Of a DNA stretch of 53,523 bases, positions 1,270 through 40,831 are shown piece by piece; the first letter of the stretch is position 1, and every line of letters starts with the position of its first letter. The notes under the pieces were generated by a model. It was not told the DNA's origin and did not search any database. It saw nothing but the letters and a program-made list of their open reading frames with translations. This DNA is from a virus: IMG/VR virus record IMGVR_UViG_3300029825_000389, positions 1-53,523 of that record; one strand, 5' to 3'. The translations under genes were made by a program, and so were the position numbers.

Positions 1270-1289
1270 AGTATTAAGAGGTGATAAAT

Positions 1290-2378
1290 ATGTTAAAAGC
1301 TTACAAATACAGGATATATCCAAACAAAGAACAAAGAATATTTCTAGCTAAAACCTTTGGGTGTACTAGATTTATCTATAATCAAATGTTAGCAGATAGA
1401 ATTAAATCTTATCAGGAGAACAAAGAATTGGATATAAAAAAAATAAAATATCCAACACCAGCACTATATAAACAAAAATTTCCTTGGCTAAAAGAAGTAG
1501 ATAGTTTAGCTTTAGCCAATGCACAAATGAATTTGGATAAATCCTATAAAAATTTCTTTAGGGATAAATCTGTAGGATTTCCTAAATTCAAAAGTAAGAA
1601 AACTAATTATAATAGCTATACAACCAATAATCAAAAAGGAACGGTATACATTGAAAACAGTCATGTAAAAGTACCTAAGTTAAAATCTATGATTAAAATA
1701 AAACAACATAGAGAGTTCACAGGCTTGATAAAATCCTGCACTATATCACAAGTACCAAGTGGCAAGTATTATATATCAATTTTAGTAGATAGTGAAAATT
1801 TCGTTCTACCAGTTATAAATAAAAAAATAGGTGTAGATGTTGGACTTAAAGAATTTGCAATATGTTCTGATGGGTATAGAGAACCTAATCCAAAACATCT
1901 TAGAAAATCAGAAAAAAGGCTCATTAAATTCCAAAGGGATTTATCGAGAAAGCAAAAAGGTAGTAACAATAGACGTAAAGCTAGGCTAAAAGTAGCAAAA
2001 CTACATGAAAAAATATCTAATCAAAGAGCAGATTTCTTACATAAGTTATCAATTAAACTAATCAGAGAAAACCAATCTATAGTTATTGAGGACTTAAGAG
2101 TAAATAATATGCTAAAGAATCATAAGTTAGCAAAAGCAATAAGCGAAGCTTCATGGTCAGAATTTAGAAGGATGTTAGAGTATAAGGCTAATTGGTATGG
2201 CAGGGAAATAATAATTGCACCATCTAATTATGCTAGTTCTCAATTATGTTCAGTTTGTGGGTATAAAAATAAAGAAGTAAAAAATCTAGCACTTAGAGAA
2301 TGGATTTGCCCTCAATGTGGTACACACCACGATAGGGATATAAATGCTAGTAAAAATCTACTGAAATTAGTTATATGA
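1290..2378 (+). CDS. tnpB: TnpB (OrfB) RNA-guided nuclease, IS200/IS605 family
   Basis: Canonical N-terminus [15 protein letters not shown]...FGCTRFIYN. RuvC-like D in GVDVGLK. C-terminal zinc ribbon CSVCG...CPQCG. The start is moved to ATG 1290 because GTG 1281 lies inside the SD. Confidence 0.9.
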
Positions 2379-2485
2379 TTTTGGTAATAAACTGAGGTTG
2401 GTTCGACCTTTAGAGCATGGGTAAACTTGCTACAGTAGTAGTATTGACCATGAAGCCATCCACTTCTATAAGTGGTGGTAGTTCA
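2379..2485 (+). ncRNA. Probable 3' part of the omega/right-end guide RNA scaffold of tnpB element 1
   Basis: A GC-richer structured tail lies immediately after the tnpB stop and ends in the right-end hairpin 2456-2478. Established biology of IS605 TnpB places the guide RNA here. The 5' end (probably inside tnpB) and the guide sequence are not determined. Confidence 0.4.
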
Positions 2486-2517
2486 CACATATAATGTATT
2501 GTATTGCATACAAAAAT

Positions 2518-2581: not shown

Positions 2582-3163
2582 CTATGCAGAAGCCGGTACA
2601 TTCTGTTCAGTATTTTGTACAGTAGCAATCTTTTGCTTCAACTGTGCATTTTCATTCTGTACAGCTGCTAGATCTTGTTGAGCTTTCTGTATTTGTGCGT
2701 CCTTTTCTGCTTCTGTAGTTGCCTTTTGTACAGGAGTTATAGTCTCTTTCTGTGATTTTATAGTGTCTACTATATCCGAAACATCTTTACTTGCATCAAA
2801 TGCAGGTGCTAAAATCTGACTACTCTTAACCTCTGAATTTACCTTTCCACAAATAGTTTCCCTGAAGTGGTTTAGTTCTTCCTGAGATATTCCTGGAATC
2901 TTCTCAATTAGCAGCTTATCAAATTCTTTTCTTTTCTGTTCCCCTGCCTGTGGTATAAATTTAAACTGCTGCTCTACTATATAGTAAATGTCTTGTGCAA
3001 TTTTATAATCCTCGTTGTATTTATCTACACCTAGTTGTGTTACAAGAGCTTCCCTTTTCTTTTTAAGATAAGTCACCCCTACTGTTACACCATAAGAAGC
3101 CAAAGCTCCTAAAACACTCAATACTCCACTTGAAATTATATTTGCTGCTTCATTTCCTAACAT
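2582..3163 (-). CDS. Holin-like membrane protein (LL-H holin family-like) with a coiled-coil tail
   Basis: N-terminal TM segment (ISSGVLSVLGALASYGVTVGV). It is the last gene of the lysis cassette, after the amidase. Confidence 0.4.
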   Translation of the reverse strand: MLGNEAANIISSGVLSVLGALASYGVTVGVTYLKKKREALVTQLGVDKYNEDYKIAQDIYYIVEQQFKFIPQAGEQKRKEFDKLLIEKIPGISQEELNHFRETICGKVNSEVKSSQILAPAFDASKDVSDIVDTIKSQKETITPVQKATTEAEKDAQIQKAQQDLAAVQNENAQLKQKIATVQNTEQNVPASA

Positions 3164-3273
3164 ACTTTTTCCTCCTAAAATTTAATTTGTATTTTTGATA
3201 ATTTAAAAAAGGCTATTTTACTAGTCTTATAAAACAAAATTCTCATCATATCTTTTGATTTATAAAATGAGAA

Positions 3274-4035
3274 TTAAAATAATACCTTAGATCCACCCTG
3301 ACCTTTGTTATTGTTATAAACTACCACCGGAGCTCCACCTTTACGAATAGTAATATAATTTCCTCTGTCCAGGTGAATTCCCATATCTCCATCAGCCCTT
3401 GGTTCTATATAAAATTTAGTACCTGGAATCTGAAATACTCCTTCTGGAATAGTTTCAGGATATGTAGGTACTGGTTGTACTACTGGCTTAGGTGCAGTTG
3501 GTTGGTTTGATACTGTTTGTCCTGTAATCCCTTTTACTATAGCTGTTGCTAGCTTCTCAGGATTATACTTGTTACAATCGCTTTTAGTATCACAGAAAAA
3601 TGGTTCTATAAGAATAGCAGTCATGTTTGTATATTTTAATACATAAAGTCCAGTTCTTAATTGGCTGCCTCTGTTTCTAAATTCTAATGCATTAGACATC
3701 TCATTGCATACTCTATCAGCATAAGTTTTACCTGAAGCACTTATATACTCTACTTCACAGCCATTGGCCTTATCTGTTTCATAGGCGTTAACATGCATAC
3801 AAATATGAAGTTGTGAGCCTATAGAATTAGCTTTATTAACCCTATAAGCAAGGCTCTGTCCTAAACTTAAGGCTGGGCTTGCTGGTGGCGTACAATCATA
3901 GCAGGTATGCCCTAGTTGCTGCAACTTTTTAATTGCAAGTGCTCCATATTCCCTGCAGTCATGTTCCTCATTTCTATAGCCGGAAGCTCCACGATCTTCA
4001 CCAGTACCATGTCCAAAATCATAAGTTATTACCAT
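3274..4035 (-). CDS. Endolysin, N-acetylmuramoyl-L-alanine amidase (Amidase_3-type) with a C-terminal binding domain
   Basis: DFGHG...GASG, HICMHVNA and CEVEY motifs. Lies in the lysis cassette. Confidence 0.8.
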   Translation of the reverse strand: MVITYDFGHGTGEDRGASGYRNEEHDCREYGALAIKKLQQLGHTCYDCTPPASPALSLGQSLAYRVNKANSIGSQLHICMHVNAYETDKANGCEVEYISASGKTYADRVCNEMSNALEFRNRGSQLRTGLYVLKYTNMTAILIEPFFCDTKSDCNKYNPEKLATAIVKGITGQTVSNQPTAPKPVVQPVPTYPETIPEGVFQIPGTKFYIEPRADGDMGIHLDRGNYITIRKGGAPVVVYNNNKGQGGSKVLF

Positions 4036-17448: not shown

Positions 17449-17871
17449 TTACTTCTGGATCTTCGTCGATGTTTTTTTTAATTCTTTTACCGCATCTTTA
17501 TTGAATCCGCTTAACTTATTTATGATATTAAATAGTCCAGTGATTTCGCCTGGCAAAAAGCAATTGACTACCGCTTCTGTTGCATTTATAGCATCAAATT
17601 TTTCTATTACTTTCATGCTACTAAAGTCAGGATCTCTTACACCCTTAACTACATATTTGGCTTGAATATTTTTTTCAATGTTTATTTCACCATCTGTATT
17701 TGCTGTCAAACTTTCTTGAATCTCTGAAAATTCGTCTCCTGTAATTGATTGTACTGTAACTGTAAAAGTTTCTCCTAATGCTTCCGAAAGCCTTTTTATC
17801 TCAACATCTACTGTAGGTCTAACTAATTTTGTTTTGTCTAATTTTAACAATAAATCCATTGCATTACTCAT
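17449..17871 (-). CDS. Tail assembly chaperone (XkdN-like)
   Basis: Lies between the tube and tape measure genes. Start reset to ATG 17871 behind SD taggagga. Confidence 0.6.
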   Translation of the reverse strand: MSNAMDLLLKLDKTKLVRPTVDVEIKRLSEALGETFTVTVQSITGDEFSEIQESLTANTDGEINIEKNIQAKYVVKGVRDPDFSSMKVIEKFDAINATEAVVNCFLPGEITGLFNIINKLSGFNKDAVKELKKTSTKIQK

Positions 17872-18074
17872 ATATTTTTTCCTCCTAAAATTTAAAAGCA
17901 TCTATTCTTTAATAGATACTAATTATTGTTTTTATAATCCATAAACTTTTAAATGTTCTCTTGCTTTTGAAACTTAAAATTTAGTAATTATTCAAGCAAG
18001 CTAAAGGGTAATAAAAAATACCCACTAAAGGATAATTCGTTCTTTTGTAGAATTATTCCTTAGGAGGTGATATT

Positions 18075-18296
18075 GTGCAAAAACAAGTCACATGTACTTA
18101 TAGACTTCAATGTCCACACTTAAATAAACTTCACGAGATAAATATTACTTATGCTCAAGTTCCTATGTGCGGCACTACTAAAGAAGTCTATAAAAAAGTA
18201 GAATCGTATTGCTCAGAAGATTCAAAATGTAATCTTAAAGATCAATATGGCCGTTGTCCTGTTTATTTAAAGGCTCCTGAACAACCTCATTTTTAG
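18075..18296 (+). CDS. 73-aa Cys-rich protein A1 (unknown family), paralog of 43065..43262
   Basis: SD ggaggtgat followed by GTG. The shared pattern CP..N....INI.Y..V.MCG..K..YKK...YC......CNL....CP.Y.KAP aligns the two copies. Confidence 0.65.
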   Translation: MQKQVTCTYRLQCPHLNKLHEINITYAQVPMCGTTKEVYKKVESYCSEDSKCNLKDQYGRCPVYLKAPEQPHF

Positions 18297-18522
18297 ACAT
18301 CCCTGCTAAATTAGAAAGTTTATAAAATGTAGGCCATGGGTCTACGGCATTTTCACTTGCACTGCAATGGCGGTTACAATCATAGCACGCATTAGGCACG
18401 TTCTCTTTTTTATCCCAATTGGTAAGTATAAATTCTCTTAAGTGCCTAAAAATACATTCAAGTTCATTTTTATTTAACTGCCCTTGAATTTCTTGGGCAG
18501 CTTCTTTTTTATTTTTATTCAT
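18235..18522 (-). CDS. 95-aa Cys-containing protein B1 (unknown family), paralog of 43266..43544; convergent with A1 and overlapping it by 62 nt
   Basis: Shared L.C....L..FI...C..C....C...F..L..L.G pattern with B2. Confidence 0.55.
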   Translation of the reverse strand: MNKNKKEAAQEIQGQLNKNELECIFRHLREFILTNWDKKENVPNACYDCNRHCSASENAVDPWPTFYKLSNLAGMSKNEVVQEPLNKQDNGHIDL

Positions 18523-18553: not shown

Positions 18554-19531
18554 TTAAAGGATGCTTAATTGTATTTCTTTGTTTAATTTTTTAAGTTCGT
18601 TATCTAAATATTTCTCTATGTTCTTAACTGTGCAAGGTATTCTTATAAGTGGTATGTTATGTGCTAAACAATAATTTGTTTTTATCGCATCATTATGTTG
18701 CGTTCTTTTAAGAGTTTTTATACCGCCAAAATGTGCTACAGCTTCTTTGTGTTGTTGTCCATCATACTCTATTAAAGCTGTTAGTTTGTTTTTATTAAAT
18801 ATTGCAAAGTCAAAAGGTAATTGTTTCTTATTAACACACCCTTTAATTCTGAACTGTCTTTTAAATTGAATGTTATTATGTTGCAAATATTCAGTTACAA
18901 TACGTTCTCCGTGGCTTTCATCACATTTTGGGCATCTACTATTAAAATATAAAAACCTTTTAGGTGTTACTTCCCATTCTGTACCACATTTATTATGTTT
19001 CATTTTAATCTTTGTAGTATTCTTTATATAACGCCCCATTACTGTATATTCTGTGCCTACTTTTTCAAAAACATCTTTTAAAAAGGTTTCATGAGTTTTT
19101 CTCAATTTTTTACCAATAGCTTGTGGTGCACATTTAGGGCACCTTGCTGATTTCGTAATAAAATCGTTAGGTGTAATATCCCAAATGGTATTACATTTAC
19201 AATGCCTCATAGCAATTTTTTTATGTGCTCCTTTATATTCACCCATGACTTCATATTCGTTGCCTGTAAGGATATATACCTCTTTCTTAAAAGTTTCAAT
19301 GGTTTTCATTTGTCTTTTACGGTCTATTTCAGCCTTGCATATAGGGCATCTTGAAGGATATTTTGATTTTAAAAAATTATTAGGTATTACTTCAAATATA
19401 TTATTACAAATATTATGTTTCATTTTAATTCTTCTTGCAGTGTTTATATATTTACCAATTACCTCATATTCATTACCAACTAAATTGTAAACTTGTTGTA
19501 CAAATTCTTCATGCGTTTTTCTCTTAACCAT
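18554..19531 (-). CDS. Free-standing homing-endonuclease-like protein: three zinc-ribbon repeats plus a PD-(D/E)xK (Vsr/DUF559-like) domain
   Basis: Same repeat type (KHNxCN...RCPxC) and C-terminus (LPFDFAIF...IEYDGQQH) as 13231..14523. Interrupts the tube-chaperone junction. Confidence 0.65.
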   Translation of the reverse strand: MVKRKTHEEFVQQVYNLVGNEYEVIGKYINTARRIKMKHNICNNIFEVIPNNFLKSKYPSRCPICKAEIDRKRQMKTIETFKKEVYILTGNEYEVMGEYKGAHKKIAMRHCKCNTIWDITPNDFITKSARCPKCAPQAIGKKLRKTHETFLKDVFEKVGTEYTVMGRYIKNTTKIKMKHNKCGTEWEVTPKRFLYFNSRCPKCDESHGERIVTEYLQHNNIQFKRQFRIKGCVNKKQLPFDFAIFNKNKLTALIEYDGQQHKEAVAHFGGIKTLKRTQHNDAIKTNYCLAHNIPLIRIPCTVKNIEKYLDNELKKLNKEIQLSIL

Positions 19532-19829: not shown

Positions 19830-20288
19830 TTATGCTGTTATTGTTGATGGGTCGATAGTATCTAAGGCTTCAGCCGTCTCGAAAGTAAAGGGAATTGATT
19901 CTGTTCCTAGCTTACCACTTGACCAATCAATAAGTGTTAATTCATCAAACTTTACCCCACCTAATTTAATACGTTCTGTTCCCCCATTGCCAGGATCAGT
20001 TAATTTAGATATAAGCGTACACGGTTTCTCTATTCCATTATTCATATTATCCATTAATAGCAAAATAAATCTTGAACTAACTTTATTCGCAACAAGAGTT
20101 CCTGAACCATCCCATCCCACTTTTTTATATTTTTTGGAATTTGTTCCACACATTGGTACTTCAACTTTATTAGCTTTCATTTTAGCTTGGACACTTGTAG
20201 CCTCAAATAATTGCTCATCATCCAGAAAAACCGTACCATTATTACCATAGATCGTCTTTTCTTCATTATAATAGCCTGTTCTATTCAT
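19830..20288 (-). CDS. Tail tube protein (XkdM-like)
   Basis: Position after the sheath gene; size. Confidence 0.7.
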   Translation of the reverse strand: MNRTGYYNEEKTIYGNNGTVFLDDEQLFEATSVQAKMKANKVEVPMCGTNSKKYKKVGWDGSGTLVANKVSSRFILLLMDNMNNGIEKPCTLISKLTDPGNGGTERIKLGGVKFDELTLIDWSSGKLGTESIPFTFETAEALDTIDPSTITA

Positions 20289-23047: not shown

Positions 23048-23218
23048 TCCGTTACGTAAAACTTATAAAACTCTATAAAAACTTTATAAAAGTTAATGTT
23101 CACTTCCTCATTCAATGTGTCCGATTTTACCTAAGCTACTTTCGTTTGCTATAACACTCCAAAGGCATAAATTCGGATGTAAACTCACCCTACATATTAG
23201 TAGTATCTTTTAAAATGA

Positions 23219-24376
23219 TTAAACTACTAATTTATATCTTGATAAATTGATACTTGCTTGAAAATCTCTATCCATAACATTTCCACATTCACATTTATAT
23301 ACTCTATCTGAAAGTTTTAAATCTTTCTTAATAGCTCCACAACATGAACATAGTTTTGATGATGGAAACCACCTATCTGCTTCTACAAATTCAATTCCAT
23401 ATCTTTCAGATTTATATTTAATCATAGTTTTGAATTTATCTAATCCTTGTTGTGCTATTGCTTTAGATAAATGTCGATTTTTCATCATGCCTTTAACGTT
23501 TAGACATTCCATGACTATCCTTGACGGCTTGTTTCTCACTATCTTAGTAGACTCTTCATGTCTATAATTGGTACGAATGTTTGCAAGTTTTATATGCAAT
23601 TTAACAATTTCTTTTTCAAGTTTTATAATATTGCTTGTTTTTACGTAACTTTCTCCTTTCTTATTTTTAATATATTTTCTTGATACTCTGCGTTGCAATC
23701 TACGCATTTTCTTTTCTAATTTCTTAACTCTATGCGTTTTGTTAATATTTTTAGATACAATACCATTGCTACATATTGCTAAATCTTTTACCCCAACGTC
23801 TATTCCAATACTCTCTGTAGTTAATTCAGGCTTAATATCCTCAATCTCAACCCCAACAGATATATACCAATTCATACCGTCAAAACTAACCCTTGGATTG
23901 ATATATTTGACATCTGTAGGTATTCTATTTTTTTCAGAAAGTTTAACCCAATTAAGTTTTTGCTTATTCTTCTTTTTGCTACTTGCAAAACCTTCAAACT
24001 TAACATGAGTTGCAGTAAATTGAATTTTATCAGTATCTTGATAAAATTTAGGTGGTGAATGTTTTTTACTTTTAAATTTTGGTCTTTTAGCTAAACCTTT
24101 AAAAAATCTTTTATAAGCTTCACAAGCATCTTTTATGGCTTGTTTAGACACGTTGTTACTAATATTGTTTAGCCATTTATATTGTTGTTGTTTCTTTAAT
24201 TGAGTAAGTTCTTTTCTTAAATCACCATCATTAATAAACTTCCCACCATTTTTATAATTTTCCTCTTGTTTTGCAAGTGTCCAGTTATAAATAAATCTAG
24301 CTGTACCTGCATATTGAAATAATTTAGTTTTTTGTTTATTGTTAGGCTCTAATCTAACTTTAATCCCCTGTATCAT
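23219..24376 (-). CDS. tnpB: TnpB (OrfB) RNA-guided nuclease, second and divergent copy
   Basis: KVRLEPNNKQKTKLFQYAGTARFIYNW..., GIDVGVK, and the C-terminal CSCCG...CECG zinc ribbon. Confidence 0.9.
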   Translation of the reverse strand: MIQGIKVRLEPNNKQKTKLFQYAGTARFIYNWTLAKQEENYKNGGKFINDGDLRKELTQLKKQQQYKWLNNISNNVSKQAIKDACEAYKRFFKGLAKRPKFKSKKHSPPKFYQDTDKIQFTATHVKFEGFASSKKKNKQKLNWVKLSEKNRIPTDVKYINPRVSFDGMNWYISVGVEIEDIKPELTTESIGIDVGVKDLAICSNGIVSKNINKTHRVKKLEKKMRRLQRRVSRKYIKNKKGESYVKTSNIIKLEKEIVKLHIKLANIRTNYRHEESTKIVRNKPSRIVMECLNVKGMMKNRHLSKAIAQQGLDKFKTMIKYKSERYGIEFVEADRWFPSSKLCSCCGAIKKDLKLSDRVYKCECGNVMDRDFQASINLSRYKLVV

Positions 24377-28053: not shown

Positions 28054-29353
28054 TTACAGCACCACCATCACTGGAATCAGAAACACTATTAAAAATTTCT
28101 TGTCCCACTTTATTAGGTTCATTTTCTGCATCACTTTTTTTAACTTCATTTTGTGGGTTAGATATAAAGCTAAATAAACTATACGTTGTTTCTTTTGGGA
28201 AGAAATCAGTACCAACTGCAGCAATCATTTGAGCTGTTGTTAAATCATCCTGCGGAATATTCGGTGTAAATTTAAGCTTTATGTCTCTAAAATCATAAAT
28301 CTCACCTTTTTCAATTTTTAGCCATAAAAAAAGCAATTGTAATCGTGTAATTATACAGTCTGCAATTGCTTTTTGATTGAGTTTACATTTTTCTTCAAGT
28401 GATATTAATCGAGATCTAAGGGCAATGCCTGAAAGATTACTCTGCATTTTTTCATTGTGATTAATATGCGCTGTTAGTTGATACATTTTATCTTCAATGG
28501 TAGTTAAAGTATTTTGTATGAAACTATCATTTATATTTTTAATAAGCCATGAAGCAACGCTTTTTTCTCCTGGAAGATTAATTATACCTAATTCTTTCAT
28601 TTTCGTAATCTGTTCCTTATCAAGCTCACAGCCTGCAAATGTAAGATAAGCATTTCTAAAATCAGATATTTCATTAGATATATCACTTAAATTGGTTTCA
28701 TATGCATCCTGTAAGCCTTTTATTGCATCATAGATAGTTCCATCTATCTTTGCAATTCCTACTGGCACTATACCAAATATATTAACTGTAGGAGGAGCTA
28801 TTTCACCAAATGCAAGGTCACAATGATATATAAATTGTGGTGTATATACATCAATAAAAGTCTTGGCATTAAACTTCTTTTGAAATATATGAAGAAAATA
28901 AGCAACCTTCCCTTTTTCGTCTAAATATGCGTAGCCATGCTGAGGGCTTATAATCTTGCATGAGAATTGATTACTACCCTGCAAATCTTCTTCAATATAA
29001 TAAAGTTCATAAACTATTCCATATTTATACAGCGTTTTACCGAGCTTACTATCATGTGCCGTACTCCAATGAGCCAAACTATAAGTAAGTGCATCTATTA
29101 TATTCTTATCTCCAGAGTTTGAAAGGTAAGCAATTTCATTTCCTAAACTGTAAGAGACTTCTTCATCAATAAATTTTTTTATAAAATTACATTTAGCTTT
29201 GTTGTTTGAACGTTCCGTAATAAGCTTGTAATTTTCCATTGCATCAGTATCACCCTTATAATAATCATGCATTTTATCATACTTAACATTTTTATATTGA
29301 TACTCTAAATAACAATTATGTAATAATGTCAATGTATCTGCGTCAAAAGCCAT
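28046..29353 (-). CDS. Portal protein
   Basis: Size and position directly after TerL. Confidence 0.8.
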   Translation of the reverse strand: MAFDADTLTLLHNCYLEYQYKNVKYDKMHDYYKGDTDAMENYKLITERSNNKAKCNFIKKFIDEEVSYSLGNEIAYLSNSGDKNIIDALTYSLAHWSTAHDSKLGKTLYKYGIVYELYYIEEDLQGSNQFSCKIISPQHGYAYLDEKGKVAYFLHIFQKKFNAKTFIDVYTPQFIYHCDLAFGEIAPPTVNIFGIVPVGIAKIDGTIYDAIKGLQDAYETNLSDISNEISDFRNAYLTFAGCELDKEQITKMKELGIINLPGEKSVASWLIKNINDSFIQNTLTTIEDKMYQLTAHINHNEKMQSNLSGIALRSRLISLEEKCKLNQKAIADCIITRLQLLFLWLKIEKGEIYDFRDIKLKFTPNIPQDDLTTAQMIAAVGTDFFPKETTYSLFSFISNPQNEVKKSDAENEPNKVGQEIFNSVSDSSDGGAVNE

Positions 29354-29370
29354 TATATCACCCCGTTTCC

Positions 29371-31158
29371 TTAAATTCCTAATAACCTTCTATCAAATAA
29401 TTTAACTTTCCGAATAACTTCTATACTTCCAATCCTATTTGCAAACTCTGCTGTTATATCCGGGGCATCATCATGAATTGAAAATTTTTGACCCCTAAAA
29501 TCTAAAATCTGATCAATAAATTCCTGATCCTCTTCAGCAAAAATAATCTGTCCTTTATTCATGTAAGGAATAATCGTGCTGATTTTATCATCCTTATTTT
29601 TTCTCTGCATTTCATTTATAATTTCAATATTTCGTACCCTTAAAACATCATCAGCATTAATTTTATTTTCTAATAAATTAGCATCTGCACCATTAAAAGT
29701 GTTTTTTTCAATATAAATATGAGTAATATCAGGGTATTCCTTTAAAAGCTCAATGCCATGGTCAATGTATTTATCAAAGTCAGTTCTAGCATTTATCCTT
29801 GCAAGTTCTGCTTTACGGGCATATTTTAAGTTGTTTTCACCCTCGGAACCCACTAAATAAGCACTATAATCTGATTTTCCGTTTGCAGTTGAAGCAGGAT
29901 CTATTAAAAGCATTGTTTTTATGAAGCTATGTGTTTCAATTTCTGCCCTTTTTTCTGTAGCAACTGTCTTAAACCACTTTTCGCCTATAGAATCAACATC
30001 ATTTTGCATTTCTTGTTTGTAGCTTGCAGGATTTTCATAATATTTTAATGCTTCATCTAGGCAGTCCCAGAACTCACTCCATAGCATAGGAAACTGCATA
30101 TCTTTTTCATGTTTCCAATAGAATTCTTTAGCATTTTCTAGATGATTTTCATCCTTAAAATTAAAAAGAACCTTATCAAATTCAAGCCATAAGCCTGTAT
30201 TAAAAAGATTGTCTAAGCCATTAACCTTTTCACCTTTCTCATTTATAAAATCATCAATTAAAATACCTTTTTTCTTTATAAATTTCCATGTAGGTTGCTT
30301 TAATAATCTCGAATAGAAACATTCTTTATGCTGCAAGGTTCCAAGAGCTATAAGTGTTGTACCTTTTTTAACTGTCTTGCCATTACGGATTACCGGCTTT
30401 TGAATAGCATACTTAACATCATCACTAAACCTCTTCCATTTTTTCTCTCTGGCTTCTTCTGTCTTAACATCTGGTTCAGATTGATAATCGTCTAATATTA
30501 TTAAGTCTGGTCTATTATTACCATATTTTCTACCTCTCATTGGAGAACTTGAAGAAATAGCTTCTATAAAAGTTTTGTTAGTAAATTCTAGCTGTGTGGA
30601 ATTACAAATATACCTTTTGTCCTTATCATCAAGCAGTTTCCCAAATGCTTTCTCAATATATTTATTTTCAAGAAAAGTATTCTTTATATCCTTGATGAAC
30701 TTTTCAGCAGTTGAGCCTATATCAGAACAAATGAGAGTATATTTTTTTATTCCATAGGCATGACACCAGCAAGTAGGAGCAAAATCAGCAAAAGCACTTT
30801 TACCGGTACCACGAGGTAAAATCCAGCCTCTTTGATTATTTCCGTCACCAATTATACTTTCCTGAATATCTCTCCAAATCTGATAGTGAACATCTGCAAG
30901 TGGAGCCGCAGTGTTATTTTCTTTCGGTAAAAATGTGTCCTGAAGAAAATACATACAAAAAAACTCGAGAGACTTAGCCCCAAGTGCCCACGCCAATCCG
31001 TGATAGTTAAAAAGATTATTAGAATTTTTTAAAATCATTTCTTCGGCTTTTATTTCTGAATTTTCTTCAGCCATTCCTACATCTATAAATATTTTTTGTA
31101 AATATTTATATAATAAAAATATATTTCTTTGATTGTCATTTTCAAATAAATCATCCAT
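29371..31158 (-). CDS. terL: Terminase large subunit
   Basis: Walker A-like LPRGTGKS. DD motif in IILDDYQ. Size of 595 aa. Confidence 0.85.
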   Translation of the reverse strand: MDDLFENDNQRNIFLLYKYLQKIFIDVGMAEENSEIKAEEMILKNSNNLFNYHGLAWALGAKSLEFFCMYFLQDTFLPKENNTAAPLADVHYQIWRDIQESIIGDGNNQRGWILPRGTGKSAFADFAPTCWCHAYGIKKYTLICSDIGSTAEKFIKDIKNTFLENKYIEKAFGKLLDDKDKRYICNSTQLEFTNKTFIEAISSSSPMRGRKYGNNRPDLIILDDYQSEPDVKTEEAREKKWKRFSDDVKYAIQKPVIRNGKTVKKGTTLIALGTLQHKECFYSRLLKQPTWKFIKKKGILIDDFINEKGEKVNGLDNLFNTGLWLEFDKVLFNFKDENHLENAKEFYWKHEKDMQFPMLWSEFWDCLDEALKYYENPASYKQEMQNDVDSIGEKWFKTVATEKRAEIETHSFIKTMLLIDPASTANGKSDYSAYLVGSEGENNLKYARKAELARINARTDFDKYIDHGIELLKEYPDITHIYIEKNTFNGADANLLENKINADDVLRVRNIEIINEMQRKNKDDKISTIIPYMNKGQIIFAEEDQEFIDQILDFRGQKFSIHDDAPDITAEFANRIGSIEVIRKVKLFDRRLLGI

Positions 31159-31171
31159 TCTATCACCTTAG

Positions 31172-32107
31172 TTATTTAGATAATATTTTCCACTTTAATG
31201 GTCTCCCGTTTAACTTTCCACAAGGTTTGTTATTCTTGATATTATTCGAAAGATTACCAAGTGACTTAATACCATAATACAAACAACCTTCTTTCATTGT
31301 ATTAAAAACTTTGCCAGTTGTAATGCAAACAACCTGTTTTGCACGAGGATTATTTTTGCCTTTTGCTATGCCTTTTTCCTTCCTAGTTTTACTTATTTTA
31401 ATTTTAATATCCTCAGAAAGATGTTTTCCTTTAAATGGAGCTACAATTTCACCATTTTTATACTTGTCTTTCATAGTATTGCTTTGTTTTTGTTTTGAAA
31501 TTTCACTTTGATGTTTGCCATAATTATGGTGGCTTCTACCGCAAATGTGTATGCCATACATAGGATTATTTTTGCCTTTTGCTACTTTTTTTAATATTCT
31601 AGTTTGACTAATTTTTCTTTTAATTTCTTCATCTAACATTCGGCCAGTTAAAGCTATACTCATCTTTTTACGAGTTTCAAACGAAAATTTTCTATTCTTT
31701 AAAGCTTTACTTATTTTTATTCTAGTTTCTATTTTTACTTTAGTTCCTAATCTAGCATTTCTAATTTTATTTCTTATAATATCCATTTCTTCGTTTGTTT
31801 TTCCGATAAAGGTATTACCACTATTACCACCGTCAGCAACATTATAATAGTCTTCGCTTTTAATAGCATTATAGTTTTTAATCCAATCTATCTCCAATCT
31901 ATTCAATTCATCAAACGAGTAAGCTATATCAACTATATTCCTATTGAAGTTTTGTCTGCCGTATTTTTTAATTGCTTTTAATAGCACTACTCCACTACCT
32001 AAATAGCTTTTCCATTTACCACTAAATATTTTCTGCCCTATATATCTTTTCCCATTAATCATATTAGTCGTAATATAGATGAAGCCATATGGATTAATTA
32101 TTTGCAT
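31172..32107 (-). CDS. GIY-YIG homing endonuclease with repeated NUMOD3-like DNA-binding motifs
   Basis: GFIYITTN...YIGQ...YLGSG motif. Repeated ...ETRxKIS.../GKNNP(M/R) modules. Start reset to ATG 32107 behind SD aggtggtga. Confidence 0.8.
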   Translation of the reverse strand: MQIINPYGFIYITTNMINGKRYIGQKIFSGKWKSYLGSGVVLLKAIKKYGRQNFNRNIVDIAYSFDELNRLEIDWIKNYNAIKSEDYYNVADGGNSGNTFIGKTNEEMDIIRNKIRNARLGTKVKIETRIKISKALKNRKFSFETRKKMSIALTGRMLDEEIKRKISQTRILKKVAKGKNNPMYGIHICGRSHHNYGKHQSEISKQKQSNTMKDKYKNGEIVAPFKGKHLSEDIKIKISKTRKEKGIAKGKNNPRAKQVVCITTGKVFNTMKEGCLYYGIKSLGNLSNNIKNNKPCGKLNGRPLKWKILSK

Positions 32108-32127
32108 TATAATCACCACCTAATAAT

Positions 32128-32178
32128 ATTATATCACAGTGATATCACTTTGTAAACATTGTGATATTGTGATACAAT
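32128..32178. promoter_or_regulatory. Back-to-back promoters with overlapping -35 hexamers and GTGATAT operator-like boxes
   Basis: Minus strand: TTTACA (plus 32151-56), 17 nt, TATAAT (plus 32128-33), driving the GIY-YIG gene. Plus strand: TTGTAA (32150-55), 17 nt, TACAAT (32173-78), driving the RHH gene. Both spacers contain GTGATAT(C) copies. Confidence 0.6.
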
Positions 32179-32196
32179 ATTATTCGAGGTGATAAC

Positions 32197-32340
32197 ATGG
32201 GTATTTCTAAGGATAATACCAGAACACTAATAACTATGTCTAAAGAGTTAAAGCAAAAATTAGAAGTAAAGGCTAAAGAAGAAAATAGAAGTTTTAATAA
32301 TTTTATAATTACTATATTAAAAAAATATTTAGAGGGATAA
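32197..32340 (+). CDS. 47-aa ribbon-helix-helix protein
   Basis: MGISKDNTRTLITMSKELKQKLEVKAKEENRSFNNFIITILKKYLEG; SD gaggtgata. Confidence 0.55.
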   Translation: MGISKDNTRTLITMSKELKQKLEVKAKEENRSFNNFIITILKKYLEG

Positions 32341-32370
32341 TTTAAAATTATTCCTTTGTTTTGTTCATCT

Positions 32371-32490
32371 TCATTTTGAAACATTATCATCATTTCCTTT
32401 ATTACTGTGGAACCAGTATCCAATAGAATCAGCTAATATAACTAAAACAAAAAATGTCATCCATGGATGCTGCATACACCAGTTATACAT
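32371..32490 (-). CDS. 39-aa putative membrane peptide
   Basis: MYNWCMQHPWMTFFVLVILADSIGYWFHSNKGNDDNVSK. SD aggtgga. Start abuts the upstream stop. Confidence 0.3.
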   Translation of the reverse strand: MYNWCMQHPWMTFFVLVILADSIGYWFHSNKGNDDNVSK

Positions 32491-32491
32491 T

Positions 32492-32650
32492 TTAGTTTCC
32501 ACCTACTTTCTTAACTTCGTGATTCTGAAAATACATAGGAGCTTTAAATCCATCAACTAGAACATGAAGTCCAGGGTAATTACAAGTCATAGTTCCATAG
32601 CCTTTTACGTCCCAAGCCTCTACATAAACTCTTTCTCCTACATCAAACAT
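32492..32650 (-). CDS. 52-aa hypothetical protein
   Basis: Strong SD tagaggtga followed by ATG. MFDVGERVYVEAWDVKGYGTMTCNYPGLHVLVDGFKAPMYFQNHEVKKVGGN. Confidence 0.45.
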   Translation of the reverse strand: MFDVGERVYVEAWDVKGYGTMTCNYPGLHVLVDGFKAPMYFQNHEVKKVGGN

Positions 32651-32920
32651 AAAATCACCTCTACTTTATATATGTCCAACCCATTTGAGCACTGTTAGGA
32701 GGCTTGACTGGATTTTCGGTTTTTAAAATTTATCACAGAAAATATGATGTCCATGACCGGCCTATTTCCATCTTCCCAAATTAGAAGGTACCCTGGGCAG
32801 GAACTCCACCCATCATGCTCTTAAACTATACCATTTTAGTTAACTTCGCTAAATTTTAATTTAACGACGTTCATTAAATTTCTCTCAACCCTAGTCATAC
32901 CAAGGCTTTCAAGCTTGTAT

Positions 32921-33325
32921 TTACTTAATAATTTTCAACTTTTTGAACTTATTTAGCTGCTCTTCGAGCTCATTCTCATTTACATTTCCATTATCTGTGT
33001 TGCTTTCTTCATCAACTACAGCCGTTGGATTTCCATATACTCTATTAAGTAAGTATTGATTAGCACTCAGACATACACGTTTATCGCTCTTATCCTTTGC
33101 TAATGCCTTAATACTATCTATATAAGTGTATACATCCTTTAAGATGTAGTTGTTACCTTGGTTTGCGAGGTCTTGTCTACGCCGGTCAAGCTCAGCCCTA
33201 GCATCATCATTATCTTTCCATGAGTAAATAGTCTGCCTACTTACTCCTATCTTTTTAGCAATATCAGTTATCCTCTCACCTTCAATAAGCATTGTAATCA
33301 TCTTCTCTTGATCTTTAGTAAGCAA
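32921..33325 (-). CDS. terS: Terminase small subunit (HTH)
   Basis: ITDIAKKIGVSRQTIYSWK HTH motif. Position follows the late regulator. TTG start behind SD aaggaggg. Confidence 0.65.
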   Translation of the reverse strand: MLTKDQEKMITMLIEGERITDIAKKIGVSRQTIYSWKDNDDARAELDRRRQDLANQGNNYILKDVYTYIDSIKALAKDKSDKRVCLSANQYLLNRVYGNPTAVVDEESNTDNGNVNENELEEQLNKFKKLKIIK

Positions 33326-33468
33326 CTCTATCCCTCCTTTACACTTAACACAGATAAAGACACCTAGAATTAGCTAAGTGTCTTTCTAAATACTTTCTAT
33401 GATAGTATAATAACACAGATTGTATTATATATATCTAATATAAATCTAATATATTTCTATGATTTTAC

Positions 33469-33882
33469 TTAGACATATATTAGAGGAATAAGTTTCTTTA
33501 TTATTTTACTCTTTAAACAAACACAATACATTTCATTTCTATCAATTATTTGTGCTATTACTTTAAATTGAAGCTTTCTAAAATATCTTAATTCTACTAA
33601 CTTCATTTCATCATCAGATAAAGTTTCTAAAGCATTATCAATCTTTTCTAATTGAACTTTAAGTTTATGTATCCTCTTCTTCAATTGATCTGGTCTCAAT
33701 GTTTCATTTTCAACTACACTATTAAATTTATTTGTAGGTGCTGACTTCTCTTCATAATTTATAGCTTTACATCCCGTACCTTCATTTTCTAACTCTTGTA
33801 ATTCAAGATCTATATTTTTAATTTCAGCCTTTATAGCTTTATAATTATATAAGTTTGATTCTACTCCTTTATAGTATTTCAT
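33469..33882 (-). CDS. ArpU/RinA-like late transcriptional regulator (sigma region-4-like)
   Basis: LYNYKAIKAEI..., ...LSDDEMKLVELRYF... Lies immediately upstream of the packaging genes. Confidence 0.6.
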   Translation of the reverse strand: MKYYKGVESNLYNYKAIKAEIKNIDLELQELENEGTGCKAINYEEKSAPTNKFNSVVENETLRPDQLKKRIHKLKVQLEKIDNALETLSDDEMKLVELRYFRKLQFKVIAQIIDRNEMYCVCLKSKIIKKLIPLIYV

Positions 33883-33910
33883 AGTAAACACCTCTTTTCA
33901 AAATGTCATT

Positions 33911-34051
33911 TTACTCATTCAGTTTCTTTTTACATTCTGCTTTTTCTGCCTGAAGCTTGGCAACTTGCTTAAAATCTTTTCTATTCTCAGCATCTAAAAT
34001 ATCAACTTCAATTTGCTTTATTTTTGTTTTATAAAAATCAGTAATTTCCAA
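33911..34051 (-). CDS. 46-aa coiled-coil hypothetical protein
   Basis: SD gaggtga followed by TTG; EITDFYKTKIKQIEVDILDAENRKDFKQVAKLQAEKAECKKKLNE. Confidence 0.3.
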   Translation of the reverse strand: MEITDFYKTKIKQIEVDILDAENRKDFKQVAKLQAEKAECKKKLNE

Positions 34052-34174
34052 TTTAGCTCACCTCATTTTGTTTACATTTAATTGAATTAATTGTTTTAAA
34101 TAACTTGTAATTAGTCCCATGTAATATTTTTACACAATATTTTTATATAAAATCGCTTATTTTTTAAATTTATC

Positions 34175-34556
34175 TGTAACCCTTTATAAACGTTGGCATC
34201 ACAATATTTATAAGCATTTTTACACCTCAAGGTTACTCTTTTGGTTACCCTTTTGAGTAACCTCTAAATCCTAGTGTTTTCAACAGTTTAAGGTATATTT
34301 TTTATGGTTACCCTTTTTGAAAAATAATGTGTGTATGTAATATATGTGTGACTATATTTCTCACGTAGAAGATATATATTTATATTTTGAGTAACTTATA
34401 TATATTGATATATATAAAGCATTGGAAACACTGGAATTAAGGCGGTTACCCAAAAGTAACTTTTGAATATTCATAATATTTTTAAAATAACCTTTAACCT
34501 ATGTAATGCCAATGCTTTTATATGGTTACTAAAAAGTTACTCTTAGGTTACCTTTT
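34175..34556. repeat. Iteron field (at least 9 copies of GGTTAC/GTAACC, often as GGTTACCCTTTT) around an AT/TA-rich block; probable phage replication origin
   Basis: Copies seen near 34178, 34231, 34243, 34254 (inverted), 34306, 34391, 34444/34455 (inverted pair), 34524, 34536 and 34546. A TATATA-rich core spans 34340-34420. Lies directly upstream of the primase-helicase gene. Confidence 0.6.
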
Positions 34557-37181
34557 TTATTTAAATGGAATTATGTTATCTTCCAATTCAGTAACATCCT
34601 CAAGCTCAGGTGGAACTATAGAATTTACTTTTAACTTTCTAAGTAATTCTTTATCATAAGTATCAAATTTAATTCCTTTATTATTAATTTTTATAACTTT
34701 ATTTGATACACTTTTTAAGTACCCGGCCTTCATTGCCTGTTTTCTAAAGTCCTTAATCCCCAAAGGTATTATGTCAATATTTCCAACTTTATTTATATAT
34801 TCATTTATTTGATTTATCATTTCAGTAGTTTTTATAAAGATTCCATCACCTCTATATCTAACTACATTTTCACAGTTATAAGCTCGGCCATCTTCTATCA
34901 AGTCATTATATAAATTAATCATACTTTCCACTGCTGAATATGTCTCAACTCCATTTTCCAGTACCTCCGTTTTAATATTTTCCATAACATAATCCACATA
35001 ATTACCTATTGGAGTTATATCATTTTTTTTAAGTAAGATATTAAATATCTCTATGCCGCAGCATATATTTACTGCAGTATTTGAAGGTCTGTCTTTTAAT
35101 CCTTTAATGAGAGGAATAACTTTTTTTCTAATCTCCCTATATTCCTCTACCGTTAAACTTAAAATGGTATCAATTAAGCTCCTTCCAAACTTATTTAAAA
35201 TATCTTCATGCTCAATGATCCACTCCATGGCCTGGGTATGTTTTTCAGTTCGTTCCCTTTTCCCTAAATAAACTATGCAGCTTCTTTCAATTAAAGCTTT
35301 TTCCTGATTAGGATAGCTTTCTTCTCCTGCAATTATCACAGGTCTATTTAATTGGTAATACTCTACATTTAAAGACTTATTTCCTCTGGAAACTGTATCT
35401 CTATCATATAGATTCCTTAAAATATCCGATATTCTCAATATCTTATACCTGTCCATTCTTGAAGGTTTAAATTCATCATATATTTTAGGGTAATTTCCTA
35501 GACTCAATCCCTTTATCATTCCGAAAGGGCTTGCGGCACCTATAGCCTCTTTAGCATTTTTAGGATAATTTAGAATTGGAATTATAACATTTTCCACTAT
35601 AGTAGATTTACCACTCCCTGATTCTCCAACAATTAATAAGTGATGTAGCTTTTGCTTTATCTGTTGGTTTTGATAAACTGCTAAATCATTTATTACAGTT
35701 CCAATTATGGGAATTGTTTTATCTGGAGTAGCAAACTTAAAAATATGTTTTTTTATATCTTTCAATTCTTCTTTGCTTATAGGATCTATTTCTATTATGT
35801 TTACATTGTCTTTTCCATTAGACTTTATATTTTTAAATACTTTTCCATTTCCTATAGCCCCGTCATTAGTTATAAAAATAATCTCTCCATTTTTCTCGGT
35901 GAATTTAACTCCTTGGTGGATTTGTTCTAATTCCAGGGAAAAATATTTATTTATCCAATCCTTTAGGTCCACTAATTCCTCAACTCTGCCCTTAAAACTC
36001 AGATCCAACGTTCCTAAGAAATTTCTGAAACTTCTTACATCATCAAACACTGTCGAGGGTCCTATTTTTTCTATTAAATGCCCTGTAGGAGATTTCAGAA
36101 CTAATTTAACTCCCTCTTGATCTTCATCTTCAAACATGATTCTAGTTGCTTCAACTAAATTGAAATTAGTTAAATATTTTTTATACTTTTCAGCATCTTC
36201 ACCCTTGCCTTTATATGCAATTTTATATACTCCACCTTTATTTTGTTGAAGTTCATATTCAGACTTTAAATCTAAGCTTCTTTCAAACGCATTTAATAAA
36301 TCATTTTTGTCATGACCAGCTTCCAGCCAGTCAGTAACATCTTTGTTATCTCCTAGATTTTTTATCCCAGGTAAATTTATAAATTTGAATGACTTAGCTG
36401 CGCGGAATAGCTTTTTATATATTGACCACTTATATTTTTCTCCGGCTTCTCCAGTATCACCACAAATGTATAAGTATGCATTTTCATACATATACAAATC
36501 TTTTACATTTTTAACACTGGTAGCAACATAATCACTTCTTTTAAGTACAGAGTTAATGTTATTTACATCTTTTTCACCTTCACATATAATTAGTACCTTA
36601 TCTTTTTTAATACCTTCTATAGCGTTATACAGGTTATATGGAAGTTCCTCGGAGCCACGTTTATTAATTACCTTGTCGTTCTCTATATGATAGTAAGAAA
36701 GTCGTTTTTCTCCACTCCCGTTCCTGAATTTAGCTTTAAAATATACTATTTCGTCTTTATCGTTCACAAACGGGAATAGTCCTATAAGCTGCTCATTTTG
36801 CCTGAACTTAGATATTTCCCACTCTATATATCCTTTTACCTTTTCAACTTGTTGCTCTTGGATACTTTTTTCAACTGTAATCCCTAAGTATTCTCTAGCT
36901 TCGTTATATTTCATATTCTTAAGCTTTATTATGAAGTCAATAGCATCTCCAGACTCACCGCAGCCAAAACATTTAAACCTTTCTTTGTTTATATCTGGAT
37001 AAAATTTTACTGCCAGGGAAGGTGTTTTTTCGTTATGGAAAGGGCACTTAATGTACCCCTGTCTATTAAAATGTTCTCCTGTTTCTCTTTCTATTAAATC
37101 TCTTAAGTCAATATCTTGCAGTTCCACCTTCTCACCTCTTTTCCAAAGTACCAATTCTATTTGTTTGCTAACAATTCTCAA
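34557..37181 (-). CDS. Bifunctional primase-helicase (CHC2 zinc finger, Toprim, P4/D5-type helicase)
   Basis: CPFHNEKTPSL...CFGCG zinc finger. ICEGEKD Toprim motif. Walker A GESGSGKST. Confidence 0.85.
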   Translation of the reverse strand: MRIVSKQIELVLWKRGEKVELQDIDLRDLIERETGEHFNRQGYIKCPFHNEKTPSLAVKFYPDINKERFKCFGCGESGDAIDFIIKLKNMKYNEAREYLGITVEKSIQEQQVEKVKGYIEWEISKFRQNEQLIGLFPFVNDKDEIVYFKAKFRNGSGEKRLSYYHIENDKVINKRGSEELPYNLYNAIEGIKKDKVLIICEGEKDVNNINSVLKRSDYVATSVKNVKDLYMYENAYLYICGDTGEAGEKYKWSIYKKLFRAAKSFKFINLPGIKNLGDNKDVTDWLEAGHDKNDLLNAFERSLDLKSEYELQQNKGGVYKIAYKGKGEDAEKYKKYLTNFNLVEATRIMFEDEDQEGVKLVLKSPTGHLIEKIGPSTVFDDVRSFRNFLGTLDLSFKGRVEELVDLKDWINKYFSLELEQIHQGVKFTEKNGEIIFITNDGAIGNGKVFKNIKSNGKDNVNIIEIDPISKEELKDIKKHIFKFATPDKTIPIIGTVINDLAVYQNQQIKQKLHHLLIVGESGSGKSTIVENVIIPILNYPKNAKEAIGAASPFGMIKGLSLGNYPKIYDEFKPSRMDRYKILRISDILRNLYDRDTVSRGNKSLNVEYYQLNRPVIIAGEESYPNQEKALIERSCIVYLGKRERTEKHTQAMEWIIEHEDILNKFGRSLIDTILSLTVEEYREIRKKVIPLIKGLKDRPSNTAVNICCGIEIFNILLKKNDITPIGNYVDYVMENIKTEVLENGVETYSAVESMINLYNDLIEDGRAYNCENVVRYRGDGIFIKTTEMINQINEYINKVGNIDIIPLGIKDFRKQAMKAGYLKSVSNKVIKINNKGIKFDTYDKELLRKLKVNSIVPPELEDVTELEDNIIPFK

Positions 37182-37758
37182 CCTCTGGACTTATATCTGC
37201 ATCCAATTCCTTTAAAAAGTTCCTAACGCTGTAGTAAAGTTTCCTATATATCTCAAAACCAGCATCTTTTCTATCTACAAAAAGCGTGTCATGTAAATAC
37301 AAATCCTGTATGCTGCTTAACCTACCCAAGAAAGCTTTAGGCAGGTACAAGCTTCTGTACTCGCCTGCCTTTATATGCTTCATAGCATCTTTATCCTCGA
37401 TTATTAAATATATCTTAACCCCCTTTGCCTTTGCTCTTTGAAGTTCACGTATGAGCCTTATATCATCATGTGTGTCGGTTTTTTCTGAAAGATTTCCTGC
37501 CAGTTCATCAACTGAATTTTTCCTCTCAATGGCTACTGGGAAATATATATCTCTGTATATCCCCATTTCAGGCCTTTTGGTTATTATTGCAGTATAATCA
37601 CCCTCGTCAATTTTCTTTCTTTTATAAGGCACTTTTACACTGTCAAAGTAGGCTAATATATGGCTGTTTTGCTGTTCACGAGTATCAAAAATTATTTCAA
37701 AATTTTCCTTTAGGAGCTTCTTAATCTCTGTTTCTGAAAATTTATAATGTATTTGCAT
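37168..37758 (-). CDS. ERCC4-type (Mus81/Hef-like) structure-specific nuclease
   Basis: FDTREQ...GDY...VAIERKNSVDELAGNL matches the ERK nuclease motif. Confidence 0.6.
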   Translation of the reverse strand: MQIHYKFSETEIKKLLKENFEIIFDTREQQNSHILAYFDSVKVPYKRKKIDEGDYTAIITKRPEMGIYRDIYFPVAIERKNSVDELAGNLSEKTDTHDDIRLIRELQRAKAKGVKIYLIIEDKDAMKHIKAGEYRSLYLPKAFLGRLSSIQDLYLHDTLFVDRKDAGFEIYRKLYYSVRNFLKELDADISPEVENC

Positions 37759-37770
37759 TTAATCACCTGC

Positions 37771-37926
37771 TTAACTTTCTTTTTCGTTAAAATAATCTTC
37801 AAACAATCTTTCAAAGAAATGTAATTGCTCTAATAATTGTTCATCTGTCATTTTTTTATAGTCCGGTCCATGTCCTGGGGTAAATTTATATTGAGATAAT
37901 TTTTCTAAAATTTCCTTTCTATTCAT
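37771..37926 (-). CDS. 51-aa hypothetical protein
   Basis: SD agggag followed by ATG; MNRKEILEKLSQYKFTPGHGPDYKKMTDEQLLEQLHFFERLFEDYFNEKES. Confidence 0.4.
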   Translation of the reverse strand: MNRKEILEKLSQYKFTPGHGPDYKKMTDEQLLEQLHFFERLFEDYFNEKES

Positions 37927-37952
37927 TTAATTGCTCCCTTATTGCCCTTTTA

Positions 37953-38396: not shown

Positions 38397-38411
38397 ATTG
38401 CAATCACTCTC

Positions 38412-39020: not shown

Positions 39021-39029
39021 ATTCTCCTC

Positions 39030-40607: not shown

Positions 40608-40617
40608 ATTATCCCTC

Positions 40618-40824: not shown

Positions 40825-40831
40825 ACTTATA

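Follow-up and report, generated by a model that had tools for sequence, protein, structure and literature searches.

A conserved convergent pair of small cysteine-containing proteins in temperate phages and phage-plasmids of Bacillota

Two convergent pairs of small genes, termed A and B, were analysed in a 53,523-nucleotide (nt) stretch of viral DNA (IMG/VR record IMGVR_UViG_3300029825_000389, positions 1 to 53,523; hereafter the window). Temperate phages and phage-plasmids of Bacillota (Clostridia, Bacillus) carry A and B as an autonomous module of two genes that are inherited together. A is a real gene of a previously undescribed family, and an open reading frame (ORF) of the B family lies tail-to-tail with it on the opposite strand at 28 of 30 distinct A loci, which are located on unrelated contigs. 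The pairing is far beyond chance. Both proteins very probably bind metal through four cysteines, with zinc as the ligand partner in A and either zinc or an iron-sulfur (Fe-S) cluster in B.

The first pair consists of A1 (18075..18296, plus strand; 73 amino acids (aa), GTG start) and B1 (18235..18522, minus strand; 95 aa), a helical protein with four cysteines that matches PHROG 1664. The second comprises A2 (43065..43262, plus strand; 65 aa), a paralogue of A1, and B2 (43266..43544, minus strand; 92 aa), which also matches PHROG 1664 and has a predicted three-helix fold. The original prediction, made from the sequence alone, had located these four ORFs and a 62-nt overlap of A1 and B1, and the ORF lists agree: the two genes are convergent and their 3' ends overlap by exactly 62 nt. 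It had also described the pair as recurring 25 kb away. The convergent arrangement is indeed found there (43065..43544) but the overlap is not, as A2 and B2 are separated by a 3-nt gap. The eight cysteines attributed to A1 were a miscount. A1 contains six, four of which are conserved in the family, and the cysteine of the 'MCG' in the pattern proposed for A varies across the family alignment. A2 also has six cysteines. B1 and B2 have four each, arranged as C23 and C46-x2-C49-x3-C53 in B1 and as C18-x23-C42-x2-C45-x5-C51 in B2.

A1 and A2 are 43% identical across 60 aa (E=6e-12). B1 and B2 are 26% identical with a pairwise E of 0.004; their homology is real because each matches the phrog_1664 profile independently (B1, E=7.4e-7, profile positions 7-70 of 80; B2, E=1.7e-13, profile positions 1-77 of 80). 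Of the duplicated cassette first proposed, the homologous second pair stands. Each B has nearer relatives in other genomes than in the window (the nearest type for B1 being that of loci L034 and L018), and the two copies belong to different A/B subfamilies, so that they are not the outcome of a recent internal duplication.

The extent of the A family was determined by exhaustive HMMER searches of 1.84 billion representative sequences with an A1/A2 profile. These gave 148 sequence clusters at E<=1e-3, a minimum for the family, of ~65-75-aa proteins and with nearly all lengths at 59-91 aa. Four cysteines are near-invariant in the family alignment (C13-P, C46, C52 and C61-P in A1) and the shared pattern reads G-x-C-P ... 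I-x-[VI]-x-Y ... Y-K-K-x-x-[FY]-x-C-x5-C ... C-P-[ILV]-[YF]-x-x-A-P. A is under purifying selection: pairwise ratios of nonsynonymous to synonymous substitution rates (dN/dS) are 0.11-0.37 where dS is unsaturated, and synonymous sites are near saturation. An AlphaFold2 (AF2) model of A1, built on the family alignment, has a predicted local distance difference test (pLDDT) score of 86.5 and contains three long beta-strands followed by a cysteine-containing loop and a short helix. The 148 clusters, the four invariant cysteines, the dN/dS values and the confident AF2 model together establish A as a gene.

The original prediction could not assign A or B to a well-known family, and searches of Pfam, NCBIfam, PHROGs, PADLOC and PDB bear this out, the sole family match being that of B to a PHROG without a function. 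For A1 and A2, nothing was obtained from Pfam at E<=1, nothing significant from PHROGs (best E=0.19), and no family match from NCBIfam or PADLOC. When 138 members of the A family were each scanned against Pfam and NCBIfam, scattered single matches only were seen. The A profile gave only sub-threshold matches to PDB sequences, and Foldseek with the A1 model yielded no significant match in PDB (best E=0.59) or BFVD (best E=0.12). No effector domain or membrane segment was recognisable in A. The searched literature contained no description of A, of a function for PHROG 1664 or of the pair. The choice of search method mattered, as a word-indexed protein search with A2 returned only A2 itself and the A profile only eight proteins, and the family emerged only with exhaustive HMMER. 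A tblastn search of 50,697 deposited phages with A1 and A2 likewise gave nothing but was too insensitive, since a scan with hidden Markov models (HMMs) later revealed A in Bacillus phage BalMu-1. Two A homologues that are preceded by a strong Shine-Dalgarno (SD) sequence are unannotated in public records, at ~2289..2514 (minus strand) of BalMu-1 (L081, NC_030945) and at 3501..3719 (plus strand) of L085 (CM003332.1).

B belongs to phage families of unknown function. For distant A homologues, the partner matches either phrog_1664 or phrog_24653 (E=5e-13 for the one at L005), and B has no Pfam or NCBIfam family match. Relatives of B2 with 60-77% identity, labelled 'hypothetical protein', are prophage proteins of Clostridium beijerinckii, C. 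puniceum and others. The conserved core of B is a helix bearing the first cysteine (often C-x3-H), then C-x2-C-x(3 or 5)-C, then a helix ending in ...L-T-G-[VI]. The AF2 model of B2 is of moderate quality (pLDDT 71.6) with three helices, and Foldseek found no significant fold match for it in PDB. Against PADLOC, B2 gave a weak, sub-threshold match to the Cas4 C-terminal HMM (E=0.007), and PADLOC-DB 2.0 gave nothing for A1, A2, B1 or the neighbouring nuclease-like protein (18554..19531). The envelope of the iterated B HMM reaches the end of the ORF. The final ~20 codons of B1 overlap A1 and mirror the conserved A C-terminus; the B1 tail reads '...KQDNGHIDL' and recurs in P0161, P0164 and L085. 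Near-identical B-side tails of the form '...(L)NKQD(N/S)(G/D)H(I/V/T)(D/H/Y)L' are present in B1 (18235..18296), P0161, P0164, the L085 partner and L078 (526..687). As these tails are the reverse-strand reading of the conserved A end '...YGRCPVYLKAP', their likeness is imposed by A and does not reflect a function of B.

To define the linkage of A and B across genomes, A loci were gathered by exact-protein look-ups, a profile-derived peptide pattern, a degenerate DNA pattern and tblastn in plasmids, and each locus was scanned in all six frames with the A and B HMMs. The DNA pattern (YKKxx[FY]xC...CP[ILV][YF]xxA) was scanned over viral, genome and metagenome collections, where the true-A yield was 13/13 in viral contigs, 8/17 in genomes and 26/35 in metagenomes; the sample of loci is biased by it, as YKK..[FY].C and CP[ILV][YF]..A are required. 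Two of the 30 loci are exceptions: at L026 A has a different partner, and on the short contig L078 a host-like gene follows A. The stop-to-stop gap is <=8 nt throughout, and 18 of the 23 measured pairs overlap (median 26 nt, maximum 125-146 nt). The conserved trait is thus a tight tail-to-tail abutment with a variable length of overlap (-8 to +146 nt), and because the gap between A and B never exceeds 8 nt, an intergenic terminator cannot fit. The A-A and B-B similarity matrices are correlated (Pearson 0.65, Mantel p=2e-4) and their nearest-neighbour groups coincide. With a B partner at 28/30 loci and this co-variation, the earlier claim that the pair has been kept as a unit is upheld. None of the three grounds on which the original prediction had said it could fail was borne out: that A and B are unlinked in most genomes, that one of them is untranslated, or that both match a well-known family.

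The pair occurs in a cultured phage and in cultured strains as well as in metagenomes. In BalMu-1, an unannotated A occupies the 226-bp 'gap' that separates gp03 from gp04, and its overlap with gp03, which is the B gene, is ~83 nt. A further A-B pair is carried by p2CbBKT12695, a circular 52.5-kb C. botulinum C/D plasmid, again with A unannotated, in an early region of phage type (repressor/antirepressor, RecT, replisome organiser). The pair is also present in a C. beijerinckii prophage, in a prophage on the megaplasmid of C. butyricum CBM588 (here A is WP_003432559.1, a 'hypothetical protein') and in metagenome-assembled genomes of Lachnospiraceae, Tyzzerella, Emergencia and Eubacterium. Distant blastn of both cassette regions against phages gave matches confined to the neighbouring genes.

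The linkage is asymmetric: A is almost never found without B, whereas B does occur without A. In phiCD119 (L080), tandem B paralogues, ORF21 and ORF22 (2908..3479, plus strand), are located in the tail module between xkdP and xkdQ, and phiCDHM19 and CD1801 likewise have tandem B paralogues and no A. A B2-like gene in a C. puniceum prophage is followed by an unrelated same-strand gene instead of A. At many loci a single A is accompanied by two or three paralogues of B, or by a tandem double-B protein. In an abundant gut-phage lineage the genes are ordered B - A (convergent) - B' - B'' (L027, 10790..12260, and ~20 similar human-gut contigs: L015, L022-L025, L047-L068). In the L018/L019/L058 lineage the partner of A is a 169-195-aa protein with two tandem B domains.

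The surroundings of A and B were examined for signals of transcription and translation. A is a lone gene opposing the early operon; gene calls and GenBank annotation put it one to four genes away from the cro/antirepressor/repressor region. B runs in line with the lytic operons, in most cases as the second, third or fourth gene downstream of cro or the antirepressor. The orientations agree with the original prediction, in which A read against the phage operons and B with them, and the motifs upstream of A agree with its having a promoter and SD sequence of its own. Both window A genes share the SD layout GG(A/T)GGTG-ATATT-(G/A)TG, with GGAGGTG at 18063..18069 (plus strand), 5 nt before the GTG start of A1; a strong SD is present at nearly every other locus too. 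A near-perfect -10 box, often TGnTATAAT, lies 30-55 nt before the A start at nearly every locus. The Clostridium-type loci (A1, A2, L018, L034, L085) instead have AAAGG(A/T)WWW-N11-12-G(T/C)(A/C)GAA(T/C), a motif kept although the A proteins of these loci are only ~40-50% identical. Upstream of A1 the predicted promoter-like element is AAAGGATAA-N11-GTAGAATTA (18027..18055, plus strand), conserved in the five Clostridium-type A loci; upstream of A2 a degenerate form, AAAGGTTTT-N12-GCAGAACTC, is found at 43009..43038 (plus strand). This AAAGG-type motif fits the sigma-H consensus, which we take to be RNAGGAWWW-N11-12-RNNGAATWW. A relaxed regular expression of the motif matched four times in the whole window (0.8 expected), and two of these matches are the sites upstream of A1 and A2. 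The remaining two, at 49641 (minus strand) and 49659 (plus strand), are divergent and strict (AGGAWWW-N11-12-RNNGAATWW), and lie ahead of the actin-like segregation operon, between the segregation gene itself (ALP/ParM-type; 48485..49474) and a gene for a 204-aa protein (49694..50308).

On the A strand, terminator-like hairpins with T-runs are located within or at the start of B at 13/25 loci, as against 4/25 on the other strand. For A1, such a hairpin (CTGCCC...GGGCAG, followed by a T-run; dG -12.2 kcal/mol) is predicted at 18478..18512 (plus strand), 208 nt beyond the A1 stop and antisense to the first codons of B1. From this position, the 3' untranslated region (UTR) of the A1 mRNA would be complementary to the whole B1 ORF. 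For A2, the hairpin GTTGCGAAGCTTGCAAC followed by CTTTTTCTCC is predicted at 43426..43452 (plus strand), inside B2 and antisense to it. The A mRNA would thereby bear a 3' UTR of ~190-210 nt complementary to B.

A conserved hairpin at the beginning of the A leader, ACAGGCTG-loop-CAGCCGAGTA, was observed within the 25-30 nt that follow the -10 box at eight loci (L040, L012, L029, L044, L005, L054, L065 and L036). Its stem carries compensatory changes (GGCTG/CAGCC, GGGTG/CACCC, GGCTC/GAGCC) and a G.U pair in GGCCA/TGGTC; RNAalifold on the eight sequences gave five pairs, three with double-sided changes. The hairpin is limited to one A subfamily, is absent upstream of the window copies, and could act as a 5' mRNA stabiliser or an operator.

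How might such a pair work? The reading that we favour, tentatively and with a confidence well short of even, is that the A locus restrains early-lytic B in the lysogen or carrier state, through antisense RNA and through binding by the cognate A protein. Since the 3' ends of A and B meet tail-to-tail and leave no space for a terminator, the A transcript would run antisense into B, and transcription of the early operon would in turn run antisense through A. Expression may therefore be reciprocal, with A on and B off in the lysogen or carrier state, and B on and A off after induction. Expression of A in the carrier state, already put forward in the original prediction, would follow from its orientation and promoter. 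Activity of the A promoter would direct RNA polymerase, and with it antisense RNA, into B and the early genes upstream of it, the 3' UTR of the A mRNA serving as a cis-antisense RNA on B, and the A protein could bind its cognate B. In this way B, as a potentially harmful effector of the early lytic phase, would be kept silent in the lysogen, and the B of a superinfecting phage of the same type might incidentally be blocked. The timing of expression, the A-B contact and the direction of antagonism are parts that we infer. The module is portable, being found in an early region, in a tail module beside a homing-endonuclease-like gene and in a Mu-like phage, and this argues that its function is self-contained.

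Several observations weigh against restraint of B by A. The same wiring fits a scheme in which B neutralises A. B1 is part of a late (tail) operon, and in phiCD119 the B paralogues lie in a tail module; such positions fit an early effector poorly. The co-variation of A and B could be explained by physical linkage alone. The promoter, terminator and sigma-H assignments are predictions from motifs and consensus sequences, and no fold or family match in PDB, BFVD or the profile searches gives A or B a biochemical activity. An extended version of the favoured reading, which we regard as unlikely, sees a bistable module of a new class, in which a lysogen-expressed beta-rich C4 metalloprotein with a new fold would oppose an Fe-S/Zn helical early protein, with antagonism at both the RNA and the protein level and with sigma-H reading the A promoter in Clostridium. 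If that were true, silencing of prophages and phage-plasmids (or defence) would be tied to stationary phase, the onset of sporulation and possibly redox or metal status.

The main and close rival, itself doubtful, is defence with self-immunity. Here A, expressed in the lysogen, would block infecting phages or abort infection, and early-lytic B would be the cognate antidote that frees the phage's own lytic cycle; in extension, B-only genes and arrays of B paralogues would be counter-defence against lysogens that bear A. The B-only phages and B arrays are well explained in this manner, since A is nearly always accompanied by B, whereas B frequently stands alone, in several copies or as a tandem fusion, an asymmetry of the effector/immunity type. 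The A and B subfamilies co-vary as if matched in specificity, A carries a promoter of its own and is oriented like lysogeny-expressed genes, B is near the start of the early operon, and the portable module adjoins a mobile endonuclease-like gene. Against this reading, A lacks a recognisable effector domain or membrane segment, and neither A nor B has a PADLOC match apart from the sub-threshold match to the Cas4 cysteine motif. Further, the apparent antisense A transcript over B would lower the antidote and not help it, and B copies in late or tail operons would be made too late for an early antidote.

Alternatively, the arrangement could be purely cis-regulatory. The A promoter and transcript would then provide convergent antisense RNA and transcription interference on the early operon, much as lambda OOP RNA does on cII, and the A protein would have a separate function, for instance as a host-directed moron. 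In its favour are the tail-to-tail abutment of every pair, none with a terminator between the genes, the A terminators predicted within B, and a site just downstream of cro or the antirepressor. Yet an antisense device should be indifferent to the gene that it overlaps, and the 3' partner is of the B family in 28/30 cases despite the mosaic nature of early regions. The co-variation of A and B subfamilies, and the presence of the pair in a tail module away from any early promoter, also speak against this explanation, which we judge unlikely.

That A and B are cooperating subunits of one metal- or redox-dependent factor, such as a transcription or replication accessory, with convergence tuning their stoichiometry, seems improbable. 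Both are co-inherited four-cysteine proteins, the B2 spacing C-x23-C-x2-C-x5-C is that of an Fe-S 'staple' motif, with the weak Cas4 C-terminal match noted above, and most of the hosts are anaerobes. Co-transcription is the norm for subunits of one complex, however, whereas the wiring here opposes simultaneous expression, and neither the presence of B without A in several phages nor that of two or three B paralogues per single A is expected of such a complex. Finally, that A is a chance antisense ORF and the repeat a conserved stretch of DNA and not of protein, as its absence from the GenBank annotation of BalMu-1 and of the C. botulinum C/D plasmid might suggest, can be discarded in view of the 148 clusters of uniform length with four invariant cysteines, the low dN/dS with synonymous sites near saturation, the strong SD and promoter at each locus, the confident AF2 model and the location of most of A in otherwise non-coding DNA between genes.

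Comparison with known systems points to resemblance in architecture and not in the proteins. The arrangement resembles known kinds, namely OOP-cII control and toxin-antitoxin (TA) or defence/immunity pairs, and A and B appear to belong to none of those families. PHROG 1664, which B1 and B2 match over nearly the whole profile, and PHROG 24653 come with neither a function nor a convergent partner, and A is in no PHROG. In phage lambda, OOP is a non-coding 77-nt RNA transcribed from a dedicated promoter, convergent over the 3' end of the early gene cII, and damps cII in one developmental state. B is similarly an early-operon gene shortly after cro whose 3' end would be met by the predicted convergent A transcript. 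OOP differs in being non-coding, whereas A codes for a protein under purifying selection, and CII is without a cysteine cluster, which B has. As a candidate relative of B, CII was rejected (hhalign probability 0.04; the Foldseek match to CII, at E=5.7, is noise).

With type II TA systems and prophage defence pairs such as BstA-aba and mycobacteriophage Phrann gp29/gp30, the module shares small adjacent co-inherited genes, asymmetric dependence, specificity-like co-variation, carriage on mobile elements and a position near immunity regions. It differs from type II TA in that A and B are convergent at every locus, with no bicistronic operon, and in that no known toxin, antitoxin or defence domain was found in either protein in Pfam, PADLOC or PDB.

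The B2-type C-x(n)-C-x2-C-x5-C on a small helical scaffold is like the Fe-S 'staple' of WhiB-like (Wbl) proteins, Cas4 and AddB. B1 and many relatives have C-x2-C-x3-C instead, and the hosts are Bacillota, not Actinobacteria. A Wbl identity for B was rejected: hhalign against WhiB1 gave a probability of 0.4% with no likeness beyond the cysteine triplet, no match to Pfam Whib (PF02467) was obtained, and the GVWGG turn is not conserved in the B alignment. For A, the profile aligns to residues ~151-200 of FusB, in the C-terminal zinc-binding domain of FusB/Far1 (G-[YF]-C, a beta-strand, then Y-x-K-K-x-x-[YF]-x-C-x5-C). The signals are below significance (hmmsearch E~0.5; Foldseek 4adn_A E=1.6, probability 0.12, template modelling (TM) score 0.30) and provide a lead only; the C-P of A corresponds to CxxC in FusB, and the position of the fourth ligand differs.

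Widely distributed among temperate phages and phage-plasmids of clostridial and gut Bacillota, the A family has no entry in Pfam, NCBIfam or PHROGs. Its genes are tied to a single partner family, in a fixed convergent arrangement beside the immunity region. Should the pair prove to be a lysogeny lock, a toxin/antidote or a defence/anti-defence pair, it would be a new component of lysis-lysogeny control or of phage-phage conflict. The organisms concerned include C. botulinum C/D phage-plasmids, the probiotic C. butyricum CBM588 and gut Lachnospiraceae, and the presence of the pair in cultured strains and in the cultured phage BalMu-1 makes it directly testable. Small genes antisense to an operon are systematically missed by phage annotation.

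The window itself looks like a PBSX-type myovirus and is also plasmid-like in its gene content. Its structural genes include tail sheath, tail tube (19830..20288) and XkdN chaperone (17449..17901) genes, and an amidase gene is present as well. The regulatory set contains cro-like and cI-like helix-turn-helix genes and the Rha antirepressor (43572..44399), after which B2 is the next gene in the early operon. A 149-aa ECF-like sigma factor with regions 2 and 4 only (41654..42103, minus strand) is encoded in the same operon, ~1 kb downstream of the second cassette. A TnpB/IS605 OrfB protein with a Cas12f-like TNB domain (1281..2378, plus strand), the actin-like segregation protein (48485..49474, minus strand) and a Xer-type tyrosine recombinase (51651..52652, minus strand), together with the complete myovirus gene set, suggest that the element is a phage-plasmid and not an integrated prophage. 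Megablast of 28600..53523 against plasmids gave no match.

Next to the first cassette, a 325-aa homing-endonuclease-like protein is encoded at 18554..19531 (minus strand); it has three CapR/treble-clef zinc-finger repeats of ~60 aa each and ends in a DUF2726 nuclease-like domain. At the DNA level the gene shares ~73% identity with 'VSR/HNH homing endonuclease' genes from Staphylococcus Kayvirus phages. A1/B1 and this gene fill an apparent insertion of ~1.9 kb between the tail-tube and XkdN chaperone genes. The sole Rfam match in the window is a RAGATH-18 RNA (RF03064, 69 bits, E=9e-12) at 23104..23165 (minus strand), downstream of the ORF at 23219..24376 in the presumed head-gene region.

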